Source of the DNA: a virus
Reading direction: 5' to 3' (one strand)
DNA: 39,503 nt
IMG/VR virus record: IMGVR_UViG_3300028837_000601
Span: 1 to 39,503 of that record
Made by a program: the position numbers and the translations under genes. Position 1 is the first letter of the stretch. Each line of letters opens with the position of its first letter. The notes beneath the pieces are model-generated. The model worked only from the letters and a program-made list of their open reading frames with translations. It searched no databases and was not told the origin of the DNA. Positions 16,892 through 24,434 of the stretch are shown piece by piece.

Positions 16892-16921
16892 ATTATACCA
16901 TACTCAAGAAACTTTAGCCAA
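16892..16921 (-). promoter_or_regulatory. sigma70-like promoter with extended -10 (TTGGCT-N18-TGgTATAAT)
   Basis: On the minus strand the -35 is at 16921-16916 and the TATAAT at 16897-16892, preceded by TGG. It lies in the 220-bp gap after the MuF-like gene. Confidence 0.55.
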
Positions 16922-16964: not shown

Positions 16965-17756
16965 TCATCTCTTTAATCTGCTTGGTGCTAATGTGCATCT
17001 ACAGTCGGGATGTTGAGGTGGAGCCATCACCCCACCGCTGAACTCTTGATTCACCGGTATCACCCCCTCTGCTTCATTGCCCAAGCATTCATCACTGACT
17101 AAATCATCACCAGCAGTTACCCACTCTTTCCCTTCAATTCCCATATCCTCCATTCTATCTAAAGACGCTTGGGAGAGAGCATTAGTAGTCTCAGTTCGGG
17201 CTATTAACTGACTTCTATATCGGCTCATATCTCCAAATTCAGTTTTAATATCCCTAGCCAATCCAGGAATGCCTCTCTTAGTCTCTATCCCTTGACTAAT
17301 AGTGTGAGCCAATCTTCTTTTAGTTTCTTCGTCCATTTGAGTAACTAATCTAGCACCTTGCTTCTCTGCCCAGTCTATTGCCTGCGAAATTGGCGGTCCC
17401 TCATAGGCTATCGGCACACCAGCCTTAGTCTGACCCCAAGTTATCATCTCAGCACTACCAGAAAAGTAAATCTCAGCTACTTGACCACTTATATCAGCCT
17501 GAAGTTTATCATCAAAGGTAGCCAGCAAGGGGTCTAATATACCTCTAGTTTCAGACCCTAAACTCTCCTTGACATACCTATTATAAATACCCGACAATTT
17601 CCCATAAGGAAAGGCATCTTCAAGCTTGTTGAAATACTTAACGAGTTCTCTTTGTAGTGCCTTTTCCCTTCTTTTGTTTGCGGGTGCGTTGGGGTTTGCT
17701 GGTATCCTCGCTTCTAGTAATGTTATCAGGCTGTCCAGTTCTGCTACTACTGTCAC
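16965..17756 (-). CDS. head morphogenesis protein (SPP1 gp7 / Mu F family)
   Basis: Pattern RYRSQLIARTETTNALSQASLDRMEDMG...EWVTAGDDLVSDEC...PPQHPDCRCTL is the MuF-family signature. GTG start at 17756. Confidence 0.85.
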   Translation of the reverse strand: MTVVAELDSLITLLEARIPANPNAPANKRREKALQRELVKYFNKLEDAFPYGKLSGIYNRYVKESLGSETRGILDPLLATFDDKLQADISGQVAEIYFSGSAEMITWGQTKAGVPIAYEGPPISQAIDWAEKQGARLVTQMDEETKRRLAHTISQGIETKRGIPGLARDIKTEFGDMSRYRSQLIARTETTNALSQASLDRMEDMGIEGKEWVTAGDDLVSDECLGNEAEGVIPVNQEFSGGVMAPPQHPDCRCTLAPSRLKR

Positions 17757-18087: not shown

Positions 18088-19485
18088 TTACTCCTTTTTG
18101 CTTAGACTCTCCCTGAGCCATTTTAAGTCTCTGGCTAATGCAATCTCAGGATTTGCTTTAACTACTTCTGCTATCTGCTCAAGGGCTTCAGCAGGGTCGT
18201 TTACCCCCAGCGTCATCAAGGCTATCTGCTTGACATCCTCAGAGTCGCCAAGCGCCGGTAAGACCTGAAGTATCTGAACTAGAGCAGTCGCAGCCTGTGC
18301 TATATCAGCAGGGGCGATAGCGGGGAAGTCCATATCCACATACCACTTATCATCTGGCACATTATTATGTTCAAGAACTATATCGTTTATGTCTTTATAA
18401 GCGTCAGCCCATATTGCCTGATAGGACTGAAACATCTTCATCATCGGGAGTTCAACTGTCTTGGCTGTAGCCAGATTACCTGTTGATATATCACCAAAGT
18501 ATTGCTCTGGTATCCCAACCGCAGCACAAACCTGATATTTAATCATCTTGCCATCTTGATAGGCAGCCGAAGCCCCAGATTCTGTTTTAATGGGTGTGGT
18601 ATCTACTCCTAAGTTCTCCACTTCGTGAGAACCAGCAGGTATATCCTTTCCGTGAGTTTTAGCCTTAATAGCATCTACTTGTGCTTGACCGCCTTTTACC
18701 TTTGACCTCCAAGCAAACTTTGCCAGAGCTAACATAACCGCTATACGGCTACCTAAGAACTTCGTATAATACTTCATCCAAAGCAGAGCAGGTAATAATA
18801 GGGGATTGCCCCTTTGAGTAATTGTATTGTATGTCAGATGATAGACTAAAGCATCTTGGGTCTTTGTGACGCTTGTTCCGAGTGAGTCCGTTGTGGCTTT
18901 ATCCTTGACATTGGTTGTGCTCCGATATATAGCCTTGTGAGGCGTGCCTGCAGTATCCGACCATTCCCTGCGATAGTATCTTACATCCTCTTTGTCATCC
19001 GGGTCAGTGATTATCTCTGTTATCTCTAGCGGGTCTATTGTCCTTATCTTGGTTTCCCCATTAGCACCTAAAAAGAGGGCAAAGAATATCTCCCCCTCTA
19101 TTAAGAGTTTATCAGATGACTTACGCTGTCCTCTAGCTGATAACACGCCTTGATTGGCTTGGGCATCCCAGAATCCCTCTAATACCTCTTTAGTTTTCTC
19201 ATCTTCCGTATCCCAAACCATACCAGTGCCAAAAGTATAGTCAGTCCATAATCTTATAGCCTGTTTCCCTAATGGGTCTTTGGTAGAATAAAGTCTAGAG
19301 AGCTGAAGGTTCGTTATCCTCTCTTGTGCCGTGATAACATCCCCCGTAGTGCCACTCAGGCTAATCCATCCCGCATCTTCTAGGGCTAAATCAGCTTCTA
19401 CACTAGCAGTAGCTTCCCGCAATAAAATCCCCAATTCGTCTCTTGGTGCATTATCTCTTAATATCTTTGCTTGCTTTTCTATCAT
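18088..19485 (-). CDS. portal protein
   Basis: 465 aa from ATG 19485 (AGGAG RBS, ATGA overlap with the upstream gene). The call rests on size and on its position between terL and the MuF-like gene. Confidence 0.75.
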   Translation of the reverse strand: MIEKQAKILRDNAPRDELGILLREATASVEADLALEDAGWISLSGTTGDVITAQERITNLQLSRLYSTKDPLGKQAIRLWTDYTFGTGMVWDTEDEKTKEVLEGFWDAQANQGVLSARGQRKSSDKLLIEGEIFFALFLGANGETKIRTIDPLEITEIITDPDDKEDVRYYRREWSDTAGTPHKAIYRSTTNVKDKATTDSLGTSVTKTQDALVYHLTYNTITQRGNPLLLPALLWMKYYTKFLGSRIAVMLALAKFAWRSKVKGGQAQVDAIKAKTHGKDIPAGSHEVENLGVDTTPIKTESGASAAYQDGKMIKYQVCAAVGIPEQYFGDISTGNLATAKTVELPMMKMFQSYQAIWADAYKDINDIVLEHNNVPDDKWYVDMDFPAIAPADIAQAATALVQILQVLPALGDSEDVKQIALMTLGVNDPAEALEQIAEVVKANPEIALARDLKWLRESLSKKE

Positions 19486-19835
19486 AATTCTCCTGTCAAT
19501 GGCTCTACTGCTACATAGCCAGCCATATCTTCCAAGCATCGCCTATAACCATACCATCTCTTATAAGCTACCGAGTTTCCATCGTTTATATCCCATGCTT
19601 GTTGTGCCTTTAACTCGTAGGGATTCTCGGGTAACTCCCTATCTACCTTTATCACCACACCTTGAGAGTCCTCATATCCCATTATTTCCTTTGCCATTGC
19701 CCTAGTTAATCTCTTTGCAGCCCCACCTTCAAGTAGACCCTCCCATTCATTATTAGCCTGCAGGCCAGAGACGCTACGCCTAAAATCCCATATTCTCTGT
19801 GCTATCCCTTCCCTTATCTCTTCTTGCTTAGTCAT
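19482..19835 (-). CDS. hypothetical protein
   Basis: 117-aa ORF translationally coupled on both sides. Confidence 0.7.
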   Translation of the reverse strand: MTKQEEIREGIAQRIWDFRRSVSGLQANNEWEGLLEGGAAKRLTRAMAKEIMGYEDSQGVVIKVDRELPENPYELKAQQAWDINDGNSVAYKRWYGYRRCLEDMAGYVAVEPLTGEL

Positions 19836-20161
19836 AACTCAAGCTCCTTAATCTTTACAATATAATTATCTATACCATGAACACCCGCAACTTTAAGTTG
19901 ATTTATCATATCCAATATTGCATTCATAGTTTCTTCATAATTACCACCGCCCAAAATAATATTATCTTGCATAATGTCTACTTTATGGGGATGGGCAAGT
20001 ATCCTAAACTGCTCAAGCTCTTCCCTAGAGATATAGAAGCCATCCTTACTCCTGCAAAATACAGCTTTAAGCCTATCCATTACTTCTTGAGGGGGGTCTT
20101 CTCCTGGGAAATATACTTCATGCCCAACATATTCGCCCTCTTTGAGATAAGTTTCATTCAT
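19832..20161 (-). CDS. hypothetical protein
   Basis: 109-aa ORF sharing a 4-nt overlap with terL. Confidence 0.7.
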   Translation of the reverse strand: MNETYLKEGEYVGHEVYFPGEDPPQEVMDRLKAVFCRSKDGFYISREELEQFRILAHPHKVDIMQDNIILGGGNYEETMNAILDMINQLKVAGVHGIDNYIVKIKELEL

Positions 20162-21354
20162 AGCTCCAGCTCCTTTACTGCTTCCATTGCATCATAGACT
20201 ATTATGTTCTCTTCTTCTGTCGGCTCTGCTCTACCCATTATACCATATCTTCTGGCATCTATGCCATGCGAGAATGTGTGAGTGGTCTTATCAGTAAATT
20301 TGCCGTTCTTATCCTGTATATATCTGAAGTTTCTTTGTTCCTTGATACAGTTTGTAGAATTCTTAGTCCAGAACTGCTTATACTGCCTGACTTTTTGATG
20401 CCCGTATTCTACACTCCCTGGTCCCTTTGGTGCTCCCTTAATATTGAAGCCATATCTAAGTATCTCGTCTATTGACTTTGGCTCAGCAGAATCAGCAAAT
20501 ATCTCATCATAATTACGCTTAACTCCTAGCTCATCCATCCTATAAGCTATGGCATCGTTAGTTAATCCCGCTTCGTATATCAGTTCCTCGCTGTATAGCT
20601 CATCACCTCTTATAACACAACGGATTAGAGCAGTGGGATCGTTAGAGTAACCAAAGTCCAGTCCATAAAATACGTCACCCCCGGGCAATTCATCCACCTG
20701 CCCAAAGAAGGGATAGACAAGCCCCTCTACTTTACCCAGTTTCCCATAGATGTAAATATTGGCCCAATTAGGGTCTCGTTCTCCGGTAGCCAAGATATTA
20801 CTGATTACTTCGGGGGGAAGCACATATTCGGCATCTTTATAGGTTGAATGGATATAGGCATTCTCAGGCTGTCCCATCCAGTTTGTATGTGCCCAGAATT
20901 CACTAACAGGATTCCAGTCAACGAAGGTAAACTTGGCGGTTCGTATATCTAGTCCCCTAGCCGTCTCCCAAGGTACATTATTACCCTCGTTTATGAAGAG
21001 AATATCACGCCTCGGTCCCCTTACTTTATCCGCCTCATCAGCCCCAAAGAATTCAATTACACCCCTACCAAAAGTATAGGTATGCTCGGTCTTGTTATAC
21101 CGAGGACTGGCATCCTGGCTTTCCCCAAGTATCCTAAAGAAATCTCTTATTGCTCCCCTTTTAAGGTGCGGTAAGGATTCGCTAACAACCGAGATTAATA
21201 ATGGCGATTTAGTATTCTGGGCTATAAGGATAAGAAGCTGTAAAATTGACCAGGTCTTACTTGAGTAAGTTCCCCCCTCGTTTAATGCCCGCCTCTTATC
21301 ACCCAGCCAGGCCTTAGCATTCTCTTCATAAATTTTAGTTGTTGTTATTTTCAC
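20158..21354 (-). CDS. terL: terminase large subunit (PBSX / Terminase_3-like)
   Basis: 398 aa. N-terminal P-loop-like NEGGTYSSKTWSIL, then FINEGNNV (Walker B-like), then a C-terminal nuclease-type region. GTG start without an RBS. Confidence 0.85.
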   Translation of the reverse strand: MKITTTKIYEENAKAWLGDKRRALNEGGTYSSKTWSILQLLILIAQNTKSPLLISVVSESLPHLKRGAIRDFFRILGESQDASPRYNKTEHTYTFGRGVIEFFGADEADKVRGPRRDILFINEGNNVPWETARGLDIRTAKFTFVDWNPVSEFWAHTNWMGQPENAYIHSTYKDAEYVLPPEVISNILATGERDPNWANIYIYGKLGKVEGLVYPFFGQVDELPGGDVFYGLDFGYSNDPTALIRCVIRGDELYSEELIYEAGLTNDAIAYRMDELGVKRNYDEIFADSAEPKSIDEILRYGFNIKGAPKGPGSVEYGHQKVRQYKQFWTKNSTNCIKEQRNFRYIQDKNGKFTDKTTHTFSHGIDARRYGIMGRAEPTEEENIIVYDAMEAVKELEL

Positions 21355-21513
21355 TATTTCATTATATCGTTAATGTTTATTTACAAAGATTTTAAAACTT
21401 TTTAATTTTGAACAGTTGGTACATTTTTGAGATTTTTTTTCTTAAAAATGAGCAAAATTCACTCGTAAAATGCCGTTTTTAAGGTCTTTTATTTTGCAAG
21501 CATTAAACCCCTC

Positions 21514-21989
21514 GCTAAATAATACGGTTTTTAGGACACTAGCCAAAAACCTGTGTTTTTCGGACAGGTGCCGAATTTCGCTGTTTTCTGACCCTTAGCC
21601 AAAAAACTCTGTTTTCTGGACGGCGGCCGAATAACGCTATTTTTTAGACCCGTGCCAAACTTTGATGTTTTTTAGACAGTGGCCTAAAAATGATGTTTTC
21701 CAGACCAGTGCCAAAATCCATTGTTTTTTTGGAGGTGGCCAAGAAATGCAATTTTTTTGACTGGTGCCAAATAATGCACTTTTTTTAATCAGTGCCAGGA
21801 AATGATGTTTTTCGGATGCCCGCCAAAAAACGGTGTTTTTTTAACCCTAGCCAAATCCCGTAGTTTTTTTGCCCCCTGCCAAAACTTACAGTTTTTTAGA
21901 GCCTAGCCAAAAAGCTAAGTTTTTTGGAGCCGTGCCAAGATTCGTAGTTTTTTAGCCCCCAGCCAAATTCGTTACTTTTTCTGGCAAAT
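21514..21989. repeat. 17 tandem units of exactly 28 bp, consensus GCCAAA-N7-GTTTTT(T)-N8; non-coding
   Basis: GCC (GCT in unit 1) starts at 21514 and then at every 28th base through 21962. TTTT occupies unit positions 15-18 in all 17 units. The variable blocks keep a fixed length. Confidence 0.95.
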
Positions 21990-22098
21990 TTTAAAACTAA
22001 AATAAAGTACATCAAAAAGTGGCATTTTGAGACTAGAAAAGGGTCAAAATTAAATATTTTTTCCCTAAAATGTACCAGTTGCACAGAATTAAAATATA

Positions 22099-22197
22099 TT
22101 ATAATATTGCTAAGGCACAAGTTCCCAAAAGGGCAACCCCTATCAGTACCATGCCCAAGCCAATTAGTAAAAGTCCAAGCTTCTGAATATTACTCAT
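22099..22197 (-). CDS. 32-aa hydrophobic (single-TM) peptide
   Basis: Not in the ORF track. GGGGAG RBS, ATG 22197. Translation: MSNIQKLGLLLIGLGMVLIGVALLGTCALAIL. Confidence 0.4.
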   Translation of the reverse strand: MSNIQKLGLLLIGLGMVLIGVALLGTCALAIL

Positions 22198-22211
22198 TGT
22201 GTTTGCTCCCC

Positions 22212-22388
22212 TTAGTATTCGGGTATTACATTGCCATCAGCGTCTACACACTGTATAGAGGTCTTAGCAAATCCGCTGGTAGAAGTCCATTTGGGTTGCA
22301 CGGATTTTGATTTCTGCGGTGGGAGAAGTAGGGCGTGTAACCTGATTCGCTTCATTCTCTCCCGATTCCTAGCCTTGCTCAATGGCAT
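22212..22388 (-). CDS. small basic protein
   Basis: MPLSKARNRERMKRIRL...QCVDADGNVIPEY. Start placed at ATG 22388, so it overlaps the terS-like 3' end by 20 nt. Confidence 0.5.
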   Translation of the reverse strand: MPLSKARNRERMKRIRLHALLLPPQKSKSVQPKWTSTSGFAKTSIQCVDADGNVIPEY

Positions 22389-22752
22389 CTTCAGTCCTCT
22401 CACCCCTTGTAATCTGTTCAGTCAATCTCTTTGCTGTTTCACTGGAGACATTAATAACATAAATGGGTTTCTCGGTATCTCCCCCTATGGGGAGGGTAAC
22501 TTTCCCCTCTGTCCTATCAAAGATTATATCTAATGCCCTCGTATCACCGGTTAAGGCTTTCCTTAATAATGCCTTAACCACTGCTTCCTTGAGCTTCTTA
22601 TTATCCCCTTCGGGTATCTGGTCTAATAGTTCTCTCAATACAGCAGTTAGGCTCTTGCCCTTCTGCATACCCCCAGGATTGCCAGATTGCCCAGGCTTCC
22701 ACTGGTGTTCTATAAATTCCTTGTTTTTACCTTGCCTTTGAGGATTTCCCAT
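22369..22752 (-). CDS. small-terminase-like DNA-binding protein (DUF5681-type GNPxG motif)
   Basis: 127 aa. Contains KPGQSGNPGGMQKGKS and ALLRKALTGDTRALDIIFDRTEGK, as I recall for DUF5681 / TerS-annotated phage proteins. First gene of the late operon, upstream of terL. Confidence 0.55.
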   Translation of the reverse strand: MGNPQRQGKNKEFIEHQWKPGQSGNPGGMQKGKSLTAVLRELLDQIPEGDNKKLKEAVVKALLRKALTGDTRALDIIFDRTEGKVTLPIGGDTEKPIYVINVSSETAKRLTEQITRGERTEDAIEQG

Positions 22753-23065
22753 ACTACTCCCAGTGTCCCCAACCGTTATCCCGCCTATGACCAGAATATA
22801 GGCATAGGCACTCCGCTATTTATAAGTATAACATATCTATTCAATTATCACTCTGTGGGGCTAATAGAGTTCGGTTAATCCTCAGTATGCGGCATCCCCT
22901 ATGTGGTTCTGCCCCTCCGACTAACCGATAACTAGCATCACCTCATTCGCCCCACAGCCTTTGACCTGAACTGGAGTCCCCTCCACCTTTTAAGGCTTCA
23001 CCCTGTGGTGTCTTCCACCCACTTACTCAGCCACCCTATTAGCTCAGGTTGAGCACCTTCCTGCT
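22753..23065 (-). promoter_or_regulatory. long GC-rich structured 5' leader of the late operon (candidate cis-regulatory RNA)
   Basis: No ORF on either strand. A 9-bp helix pairs CUGUGGGGC (22957-22949) with GCCCCACAG (22861-22853), enclosing a nested UCGGUUA/UAACCGA helix. An alternative pairing of the same CUGUGG exists with CCACAG at 23008-23003. Confidence 0.45.
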
Positions 23066-23071
23066 ACTTCC

Positions 23072-23100
23072 ATTATACCACATCACTGCTTTATCCGCAA
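23072..23100 (-). promoter_or_regulatory. sigma70-like promoter TTGCGG-N17-TGgTATAAT driving the late (minus-strand) operon
   Basis: On the minus strand the -35 is at 23100-23095 and the TATAAT at 23077-23072, preceded by TGG. Confidence 0.6.
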
Positions 23101-23169
23101 GATTATTATTTAATTATAGATAGCCTAGCTCTCAATCATCTAATTGTTGCCCCTTTGAGTCCCCTGTAA

Positions 23170-23178
23170 TGGTATAAG
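23170..23178 (+). promoter_or_regulatory. possible extended -10 element TGgTATAAG (no good -35)
   Basis: TGGTATAAG at 23170-23178, oriented divergently from the minus-strand promoter about 70 bp away. Confidence 0.3.
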
Positions 23179-23311
23179 GCAATGTAAAACAGCGAGTATT
23201 TGAGAGAAAAGCAGAGAAAATAGGAGCGTTCAGTCTCACCCCCACCAAGTTATACGCCTGCGTTACTTACAGGCAACCGCTTACAATCCTTAAATAGACA
23301 ACCGAAAATGC

Positions 23312-23339
23312 TTGACATTCAGTTTATATGTGGTAAAGT
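23312..23339 (+). promoter_or_regulatory. early promoter TTGACA-N16-TGgTAAAGT
   Basis: A perfect -35 at 23312-23317 and TG plus TAAAGT at 23331-23339, 30 nt upstream of the first plus-strand gene. Confidence 0.65.
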
Positions 23340-23350
23340 TAGGGTAGCAA
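23337..23350 (+). promoter_or_regulatory. repeated leader motif AGTTAGGGTA(G/A)CAA, copy 1
   Basis: Lies 32 nt before ATG 23369 and overlaps the -10 of the early promoter. Confidence 0.5.
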
Positions 23351-23368
23351 AGAAGAAGGAAGGATAAA

Positions 23369-23599
23369 ATGAAACACCAAGTATTAGCTGACACACTAGC
23401 AGAAAAACTTGGCAAACACCAATGGGATGTTATTCACGGGAAGGGCGGGTTCTGGATGAAAGGAGACCGATTTTATACTTTGCGAGAAGCCAGAAAAATC
23501 ACTGGATTACCATCACCCACTAGACATTGCGACCGAATGGTAATGAAAGCGTGGGGAGATTATGCGACAATAGCTCAAATAAACGGCATTAAAGCATAG
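23369..23599 (+). CDS. hypothetical early protein
   Basis: 76-aa ORF with a GAAGGAAGGA RBS. First gene after the early promoter. Confidence 0.7.
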   Translation: MKHQVLADTLAEKLGKHQWDVIHGKGGFWMKGDRFYTLREARKITGLPSPTRHCDRMVMKAWGDYATIAQINGIKA

Positions 23600-23610
23600 C
23601 TAATATATCA

Positions 23611-23624
23611 AGTTAGGGTAACAA
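23611..23624 (+). promoter_or_regulatory. repeated leader motif AGTTAGGGTAACAA, copy 2
   Basis: Lies 27 nt before GTG 23638, with TAGCTAAT (23597-23604) upstream. Confidence 0.5.
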
Positions 23625-24061: not shown

Positions 24062-24075
24062 AGTTAGGGTAACAA
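24062..24075 (+). promoter_or_regulatory. repeated leader motif AGTTAGGGTAACAA, copy 3
   Basis: Lies 26 nt before ATG 24088, with TAGCTAAT (24037-24044) upstream. Confidence 0.5.
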
Positions 24076-24300: not shown

Positions 24301-24434
24301 AACTTTAACAATTGAATACTGGGCAGGAGCAGATAGACTAAGCACGAAGGTCGGCATTGAAAGATATGTATGACGGTGCGATGCCTGCCCTGTTCAGTAT
24401 TGAGAGGTTAAAGTAAATATAAAGGAGGAGGGGA

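Follow-up and report, generated by a model that had tools for sequence, protein, structure and literature searches.

A predicted structured 5′ leader upstream of the terS-like gene in the divergent control region of a marine-sediment phage

In a phage from marine sediment, the interval between a likely extended −10 promoter and the terS-like gene very probably gives rise to a structured 5′ leader on the transcripts of the terS operon (Table 1). We tentatively favor the idea that this leader would act in cis, and constitutively, on the mRNA of the packaging operon, as a lineage-specific structured 5′ UTR that involves no switch, as modeled from its predicted fold, its position and its surroundings. 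An earlier note on this DNA had taken mutually exclusive helices in the interval as the hallmark of a riboswitch or an attenuator; this reading of the leader is not supported by the analyses described below.

The window, that is, the whole stretch of DNA that was analyzed, corresponds to an entire IMG/VR virus record (39,503 bases), and its two ends share a 144-nt repeat, as expected for an assembly that is circular or permuted. The genes are laid out in two blocks, with the structural genes on the minus strand, from position 22752 leftwards, and mostly unknown early genes on the plus strand, from position 23369. The region between both blocks (22753–23368) is the sole divergent control region of the phage, and the leader is its terS-proximal half. 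The four genomic copies of the sequence TAGGGTRRC are all within 1 kb around this region (23030–23038, 23340–23348, 23614–23622, and 24065–24073), each on the locally transcribed strand, and the copy in the leader as well as both intercistronic early copies are preceded by AGCTAAT. On the early side, the best local fold of the plus strand in the entire genome (24302–24415, z −6.25) coincides with a 134-nt gap between early genes (24301–24434).

Table 1. Positions in the window of the predicted leader, its structural elements and the neighboring features.
Feature	Position	Strand	Basis
Putative 5′ untranslated leader of the terS/packaging operon, ~314 nt	22753–23066	minus	no credible ORF, fold, GC
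Sigma-70-like promoter: weak −35 TTGCGG, N17, extended −10 TGGTATAAT	23072–23100	minus	direct reading
Three GGGTGR hexamers, 16–17 nt spacing, 5′ part of the leader	22998–23036	minus	
CCACAG (23008–23003) plus AGCCUU (22997–22992), proposed alternative partners of 22961–22952	22992–23008	minus	direct reading
GGAG(G)-loop-CUCC hairpin (GGAG-GGGA-CUCC, 22984–22973)	22972–22985	minus	in MFE and centroid
Core folded domain, 134 nt	22838–22971	minus	RNALfold z −4.76; isolated 22848–22966, z −3.55
9-bp closing helix: CUGUGGGGC with GCCCCACAG	22957–22949 with 22861–22853	minus	direct reading; pair probability ~1.0
Nested 7-bp helix: UCGGUUA with UAACCGA	22928–22922 with 22877–22871	minus	direct reading
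AU-rich, weakly structured linker from core domain to 3′ hairpin	22810–22850	minus	reading and fold
3′ hairpin GCCUAUG-N13-CAUAGGC, ~20 nt 5′ of the Shine-Dalgarno	22783–22809	minus	reading and fold
Shine-Dalgarno GGGAG	22761–22757	minus	direct reading
terS start codon ATG	22752–22750	minus	direct reading
terS-like gene (DUF5681, 127 aa)	22369–22752	minus	PF18932, E 8.7e-16
PBSX-type TerL	20158–21354	minus	TIGR01547, E 4.9e-19 (below the curated cut-off), and PF17288
Portal (SPP1-like)	18088–19539	minus	
MuF-like gene	16965–17756	minus	
Divergent early promoter, TTGACA-N16-TAAAGT with TG	23312–23339	plus	promoter scan

The interval contains no credible ORF. Each of the three minus-strand frames has 7–10 stops, with all three stop codons represented, and the longest minus-strand ORF within the leader has only 21 aa. 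The earlier description of the interval as lacking ORFs on either strand has, however, to be qualified, because there is a 63-aa plus-strand ORF with a TTG start (22687–22878) that overlaps the 3′ end of the leader; this ORF is antisense to the start of terS and is without support. The use of an alternative genetic code in the interval was ruled out, as every frame contains the three stop codons, and so was a decayed or hidden gene, on the basis of the frame-wise stops, the periodicity and a blastx comparison with 24,367 ORFs from all the loci collected in this work. Likewise, a search for tRNA and tmRNA genes found none. As previously noticed, the interval is rich in GC, with a content of 0.494 (22753–23066) that rises to 0.533 for 22853–23066, vs. 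0.428 for the genome and 0.33–0.50 for other gaps. The composition of the leader RNA is 33% G and 17% C.

The promoter proposed for this interval (TTGCGG-N17-TGGTATAAT, positions 23100–23072 of the minus strand) is present on direct reading and is immediately preceded by an AT-rich tract. A consensus promoter scan omits this site because its −35 hexamer matches in just 3/6 positions. The exact sequence TGGTATAAT appears three times in the genome (16892–16900, 20237–20245, and 23072–23080), in all cases on the minus strand, which is the strand of the structural genes; the copy at 16892 is part of a promoter-like site ahead of the capsid genes (16921–16892) and is followed, ~110 nt past it, by a good terminator-like hairpin (16783–16762). 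Additionally, the sequence around the −10 and the start nearly repeats, in inverted orientation, that of the divergent early promoter (similarity with 23328–23349, repeat I1), and a relative whose terS is 42% identical (locus L084) shows TTGACA-N17-TGGTATATT at the same divergence point, ahead of its terS module. The three same-strand copies, the similarity with the early promoter and the counterpart in L084 make the promoter call for the terS operon reasonable, and we consider it plausible from these sequence comparisons, with a promoter of the sigma-70 type being assumed for the host. We infer that transcription of the operon starts from this site.

The predicted fold of the 314-nt leader RNA has a minimum free energy of −105.6 kcal/mol, lower than that of 100/100 dinucleotide shuffles (z −3.71); the z-score was −3.40 for the 5′ 229 nt of the leader and −2.31 for the complementary strand. 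The core domain is the 5th-best local fold on the minus strand of the genome according to RNALfold, from which this rank is taken, since a fixed-window z scan missed the domain owing to window registration. The helices and hairpins that had been read by eye in the earlier note, i.e., the closing helix formed by CUGUGGGGC and GCCCCACAG, the helix nested within it, and the hairpins on either side of the core domain, were all found at their positions. The pair probabilities of the closing and nested helices are 0.98–1.0, except for one terminal pair of the nested helix (0.61), and the core domain also holds one small hairpin. The closing helix alone is not significant, because 8.9% of dinucleotide shuffles contain an equally long or longer perfect inverted repeat (≥9 nt, within 200 nt). 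Apart from this stable domain of 105–134 nt, the 5′ 100 nt of the leader form only small hairpins, some of them missing from the centroid structure. At the other end, the 3′ hairpin is not a terminator because it has no U-tract, and both the Shine-Dalgarno (SD) sequence and the start codon are mostly unpaired, with unpaired probabilities of 0.37–0.83 and 0.62–0.96, respectively. Several coding regions of the same genome contain folds with similarly low z-scores; overall, the fold of the leader is suggestive, being stable in prediction and not exceptional genome-wide. Strong local structure is also predicted on the minus strand inside terS (22504–22670; z −5.6 and −4.2 with fixed windows, −4.56 with RNALfold), which could be a pac-related or a regulatory element.

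Blastn comparisons of the leader with 50,697 phage records did not retrieve any similar DNA. We also fetched loci around relatives of the DUF5681 terS (160 loci, viral and metagenomic) and of TerL (46 loci), plus eight loci from genomes, and no match to them was obtained with blastn, with nhmmer or with a covariance model built from the core domain as a single sequence; a search with the neighboring early gene found no relatives. Exact-pattern scans of IMG/VR with a 21-mer and with a three-block pattern common to the locus L083 (see below) had zero matches, and a scan for the closing-helix pattern yielded 18 unrelated matches, mostly in coding sequences and at the rate expected by chance. No homologue that could be aligned to look for covariation was found in ~230 related loci or in the phage database. 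The earlier note had made its proposal depend on the conservation of the helices among homologous leaders, and we found no significant conservation among the homologues fetched. Within the genome, the longest complementarity of the leader to any other position is 13 nt, on the same strand. From these sequence comparisons, the leader is best read as an orphan, specific to one lineage among the loci and databases searched.

The relatives of terS and TerL differ in what they carry in this position. Phages with a TerL up to 81% identical possess a terS of the Terminase_2 type, with tight gene packing and no leader, and the non-coding regions that flank terS on both sides are absent from these closest TerL relatives. 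The last 21 residues of terS are nevertheless 76% identical to the tail of the Terminase_2 terS from the phage with the closest TerL (L163:1950–2375). As only these C-terminal residues are common to the two terS types, terS appears to have exchanged its DNA-binding part while keeping the TerL-docking tail. Most DUF5681 terS genes have short gaps upstream, so that the leader would not be generally needed for this terS type. The closest terS homologues are 66–81% identical (P0002–P0010), and the leader comparison covered L083 (terS 63% identical) as the nearest. This locus has ~300 nt of ORF-free, G-rich sequence upstream of terS, whose predicted fold contains a closing helix (GUGGGG...CCCCAC) that differs from that of the window by one compensatory exchange, from U-A to A-U. 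Such a closing-helix motif is rare, being found only five times in 963 kb of loci (0.002 per 400 nt); however, the local alignment score between L083 and the leader equals the shuffle mean, and a global alignment restricted to the domain has a z of only 2.3, which is not significant. The resemblance was spotted by eye, post hoc, and we take it as a lead and not as evidence. In L084, two small ORFs (60 and ~42 aa), and no structured leader, fill the space from the late promoter to terS (L084:2043–2461). Judging from these loci, the promoter-terS slot is hypervariable among relatives.

The apparent exchange of the DNA-binding part of terS raises the alternative that the role of the leader, or of its 5′ half, is played by the DNA, either as a terS recognition region that is part of pac or as a regulator site for the divergent promoters, acquired together with the swapped DUF5681 module. 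Headful packaging is probable because of the PBSX/SPP1-type TerL and the 144-nt assembly overlap, which would place pac near terS. In phage SPP1, pac consists of terS-binding boxes that span the promoter region and the start of gene 1 (terS). The phage studied here is like SPP1 in the non-coding region that directly precedes terS, in its TerL of the PBSX/SPP1 type, in its SPP1-like portal and in encoding a MuF protein; however, its terS is of the DUF5681 type, and neither clear repeated boxes nor a bent-DNA signature were found in the leader. A DNA-level role would agree with a terS whose N-terminal domain differs from that of the closest TerL relatives while the C-terminal tail is the same, and with both flanking non-coding regions missing in those relatives; terS and these two flanks together are peculiar to this lineage. 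The three GGGTGR hexamers, 16–17 nt apart, would also agree with such a role, and the arms of the 9–13-nt inverted repeat (I6) could be protein sites. Conversely, these three hexamers aside, the leader lacks a convincing repeat family, and the hexamer cluster is small and was recognized post hoc: GGGTGR has 49 copies on both strands of the 39.5 kb, and the significance of three copies within 39 nt is modest. An array of 28-bp units, ~16 in number (minus-strand sequence TTGGC...AAAAAAC, 21540–21980), takes up the greater part of the 1 kb that separates terS from terL and is absent from L163, the closest TerL relative. This strictly phased array, downstream of terS, looks like a better protein-docking candidate than the leader. 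Additionally, the strand-asymmetric richness in G and the dependence of the fold on G-U pairs favor a role as RNA, although the asymmetry also follows from composition alone. On balance, we regard a DNA-level role as unlikely. A small ORF for a hydrophobic product of 32 aa, predicted as a single membrane-helix-like sequence, is located between terS and the array (22099–22197, minus strand).

The hypervariability of the promoter-terS slot could also mean that the leader is a functionless spacer, or a recombination scar left at the junction of the promoter and the terS module, and that its fold is a by-product of a G-rich composition. The slot contains two small ORFs in L084, a barely related or unrelated G-rich stretch in L083 and is tightly packed in most of the other loci; no homologues of the leader were found in any search, and coding DNA of the same genome gives fold z-scores of a like size. 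Against this explanation, a useless leader of 310 nt ahead of an essential operon would be uncommon in the compact genomes of phages, the GC content is 10 points above that of the genome, the fold is better than those of all composition-keeping shuffles, and there is no signal of a decayed gene. In view of these arguments, an origin as spacer or scar appears to us improbable, to about the same degree as a role of the DNA itself.

The earlier proposal of a cis-regulatory RNA was based on the existence of alternative helices that share one strand. The complementarity certainly exists, with one strand of the closing helix also matching a partner upstream, but the predicted energies show no real competition between both pairings: forcing the upstream alternative (23008–23003 and 22995–22992 with 22961–22952) costs 16.3 kcal/mol (−91.1 vs. 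−107.4 kcal/mol), and its probability in the full leader at equilibrium is 0. It reaches 0.22–0.23 at a single nascent length (117 nt, 3′ end at 22950), and is ≤0.02 at the other lengths tested. Complementarity sharing one strand in a G-rich sequence, taken alone, should thus be regarded with caution, as it does not indicate a riboswitch. The leader resembles riboswitches and attenuators in its position between the promoter and the first gene, its length, its raised GC content and its multi-helix domain, but differs in having no known aptamer, no expression platform and no energetically competitive alternative. The lack of a platform follows from three observations: no intrinsic terminator was found in 22753–23100; no helix was found that sequesters the SD or the AUG, leaving the SD open; and the RNA is rich in G and poor in C, the opposite of a Rho-loading site, which makes Rho-dependent attenuation unlikely. 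The Rfam search suggested in the earlier note gave no match at gathering score in the whole genome (Rfam 15), and no family even at E ≤ 10, with only chance-level matches in 22500–23500 (E 3.7–7.4) and none in 21200–22500.

The same proposal included antitermination of the put or qut type. The put RNA of HK022 has ~70 nt folded in two hairpins and causes processive antitermination, whereas the late leader of lambda (PR′-qut/tR′) ends in a terminator that gives rise to a short RNA unless Q acts. The leader shares with both systems a cis position just past the promoter of a long operon with terminator-like sites, which here are farther down on the minus strand (21551–21526 and 16783–16762). Nevertheless, it does not have a promoter-proximal terminator, a recognizable similarity to either element or an identified Q-like protein, and is far larger than put RNAs; a pair of promoter and terminator resembling that of lambda lies elsewhere in the genome (16921–16762). 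An RNA switch that responds to a ligand or a protein, or a put-like element that acts on the two terminator-like sites, would be in agreement with a structured RNA located straight after the promoter, with the transient pairing in the nascent RNA and with a possibly conserved closing helix in L083. The energetic cost of the alternative fold, the results with Rfam, the missing terminator or SD-sequestering helix, the C-poor RNA and the lack of covariation support in the loci searched argue against it, and we find this explanation very unlikely. What remains of the proposed cis-regulatory RNA is a structured 5′ leader of the terS operon, which is very probable, whereas a switch and a qut-type leader lack support and nothing specific speaks for a put-like role.

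There is also a slim chance that the leader is an undescribed cis-acting RNA travelling with one subgroup of DUF5681 terS, in which the closing helix would be kept by compensatory change, and which would control the packaging operon by put-like read-through of the sites at 21551–21526 and 16783–16762 or by binding a phage protein, e.g., terS. Finally, an independent small RNA gene, as was also contemplated in the earlier note, is scarcely credible, even though the leader has a promoter to itself and its 134-nt domain folds strongly, because there is no terminator between the leader and terS, complementarity within the phage does not exceed 13 nt and Rfam has no matching family. Resemblances to MITEs, CRISPR repeats and boxA/boxB, judged by eye, were too weak to be retained.

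The constitutive 5′ leader that we favor has its nearest parallel in the 5′ stabilizer of the Escherichia coli ompA mRNA, a long and structured 5′ UTR that acts constitutively on mRNA stability or translation. Both lie close to the promoter, contain neither an ORF nor a terminator, form stable stem-loops and leave the ribosome-binding site open; the leader differs in that its first ~8 nt are predicted to be unpaired, in being about twice as long and in showing no sequence relationship. In the model that we propose, the source is a circularly assembled, headful-packaging phage of 39.5 kb with a single divergent control region, in which terS, terL, and the portal and MuF genes would be transcribed leftward from the extended −10 promoter at 23100–23072. 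The resulting leader RNA would fold into one robust domain of 105–134 nt plus small hairpins, with a linker rich in AU and with its ribosome-binding site left open, and may influence the transcript in cis through 5′ stability, processing or ribosome loading. Any such effect on the mRNA is one that we infer from the predicted structure. The place of the leader would be the variable slot that separates the late promoter from a terS of the DUF5681 type.

The present value of this orphan leader is mainly one of annotation, since it marks where the probable promoter, the beginning of the packaging operon and the divergent control region are located. Were it a true regulatory RNA, the leader would offer a handle on the timing of packaging-gene expression in an uncultured sediment phage and, possibly, a new class of phage RNA.
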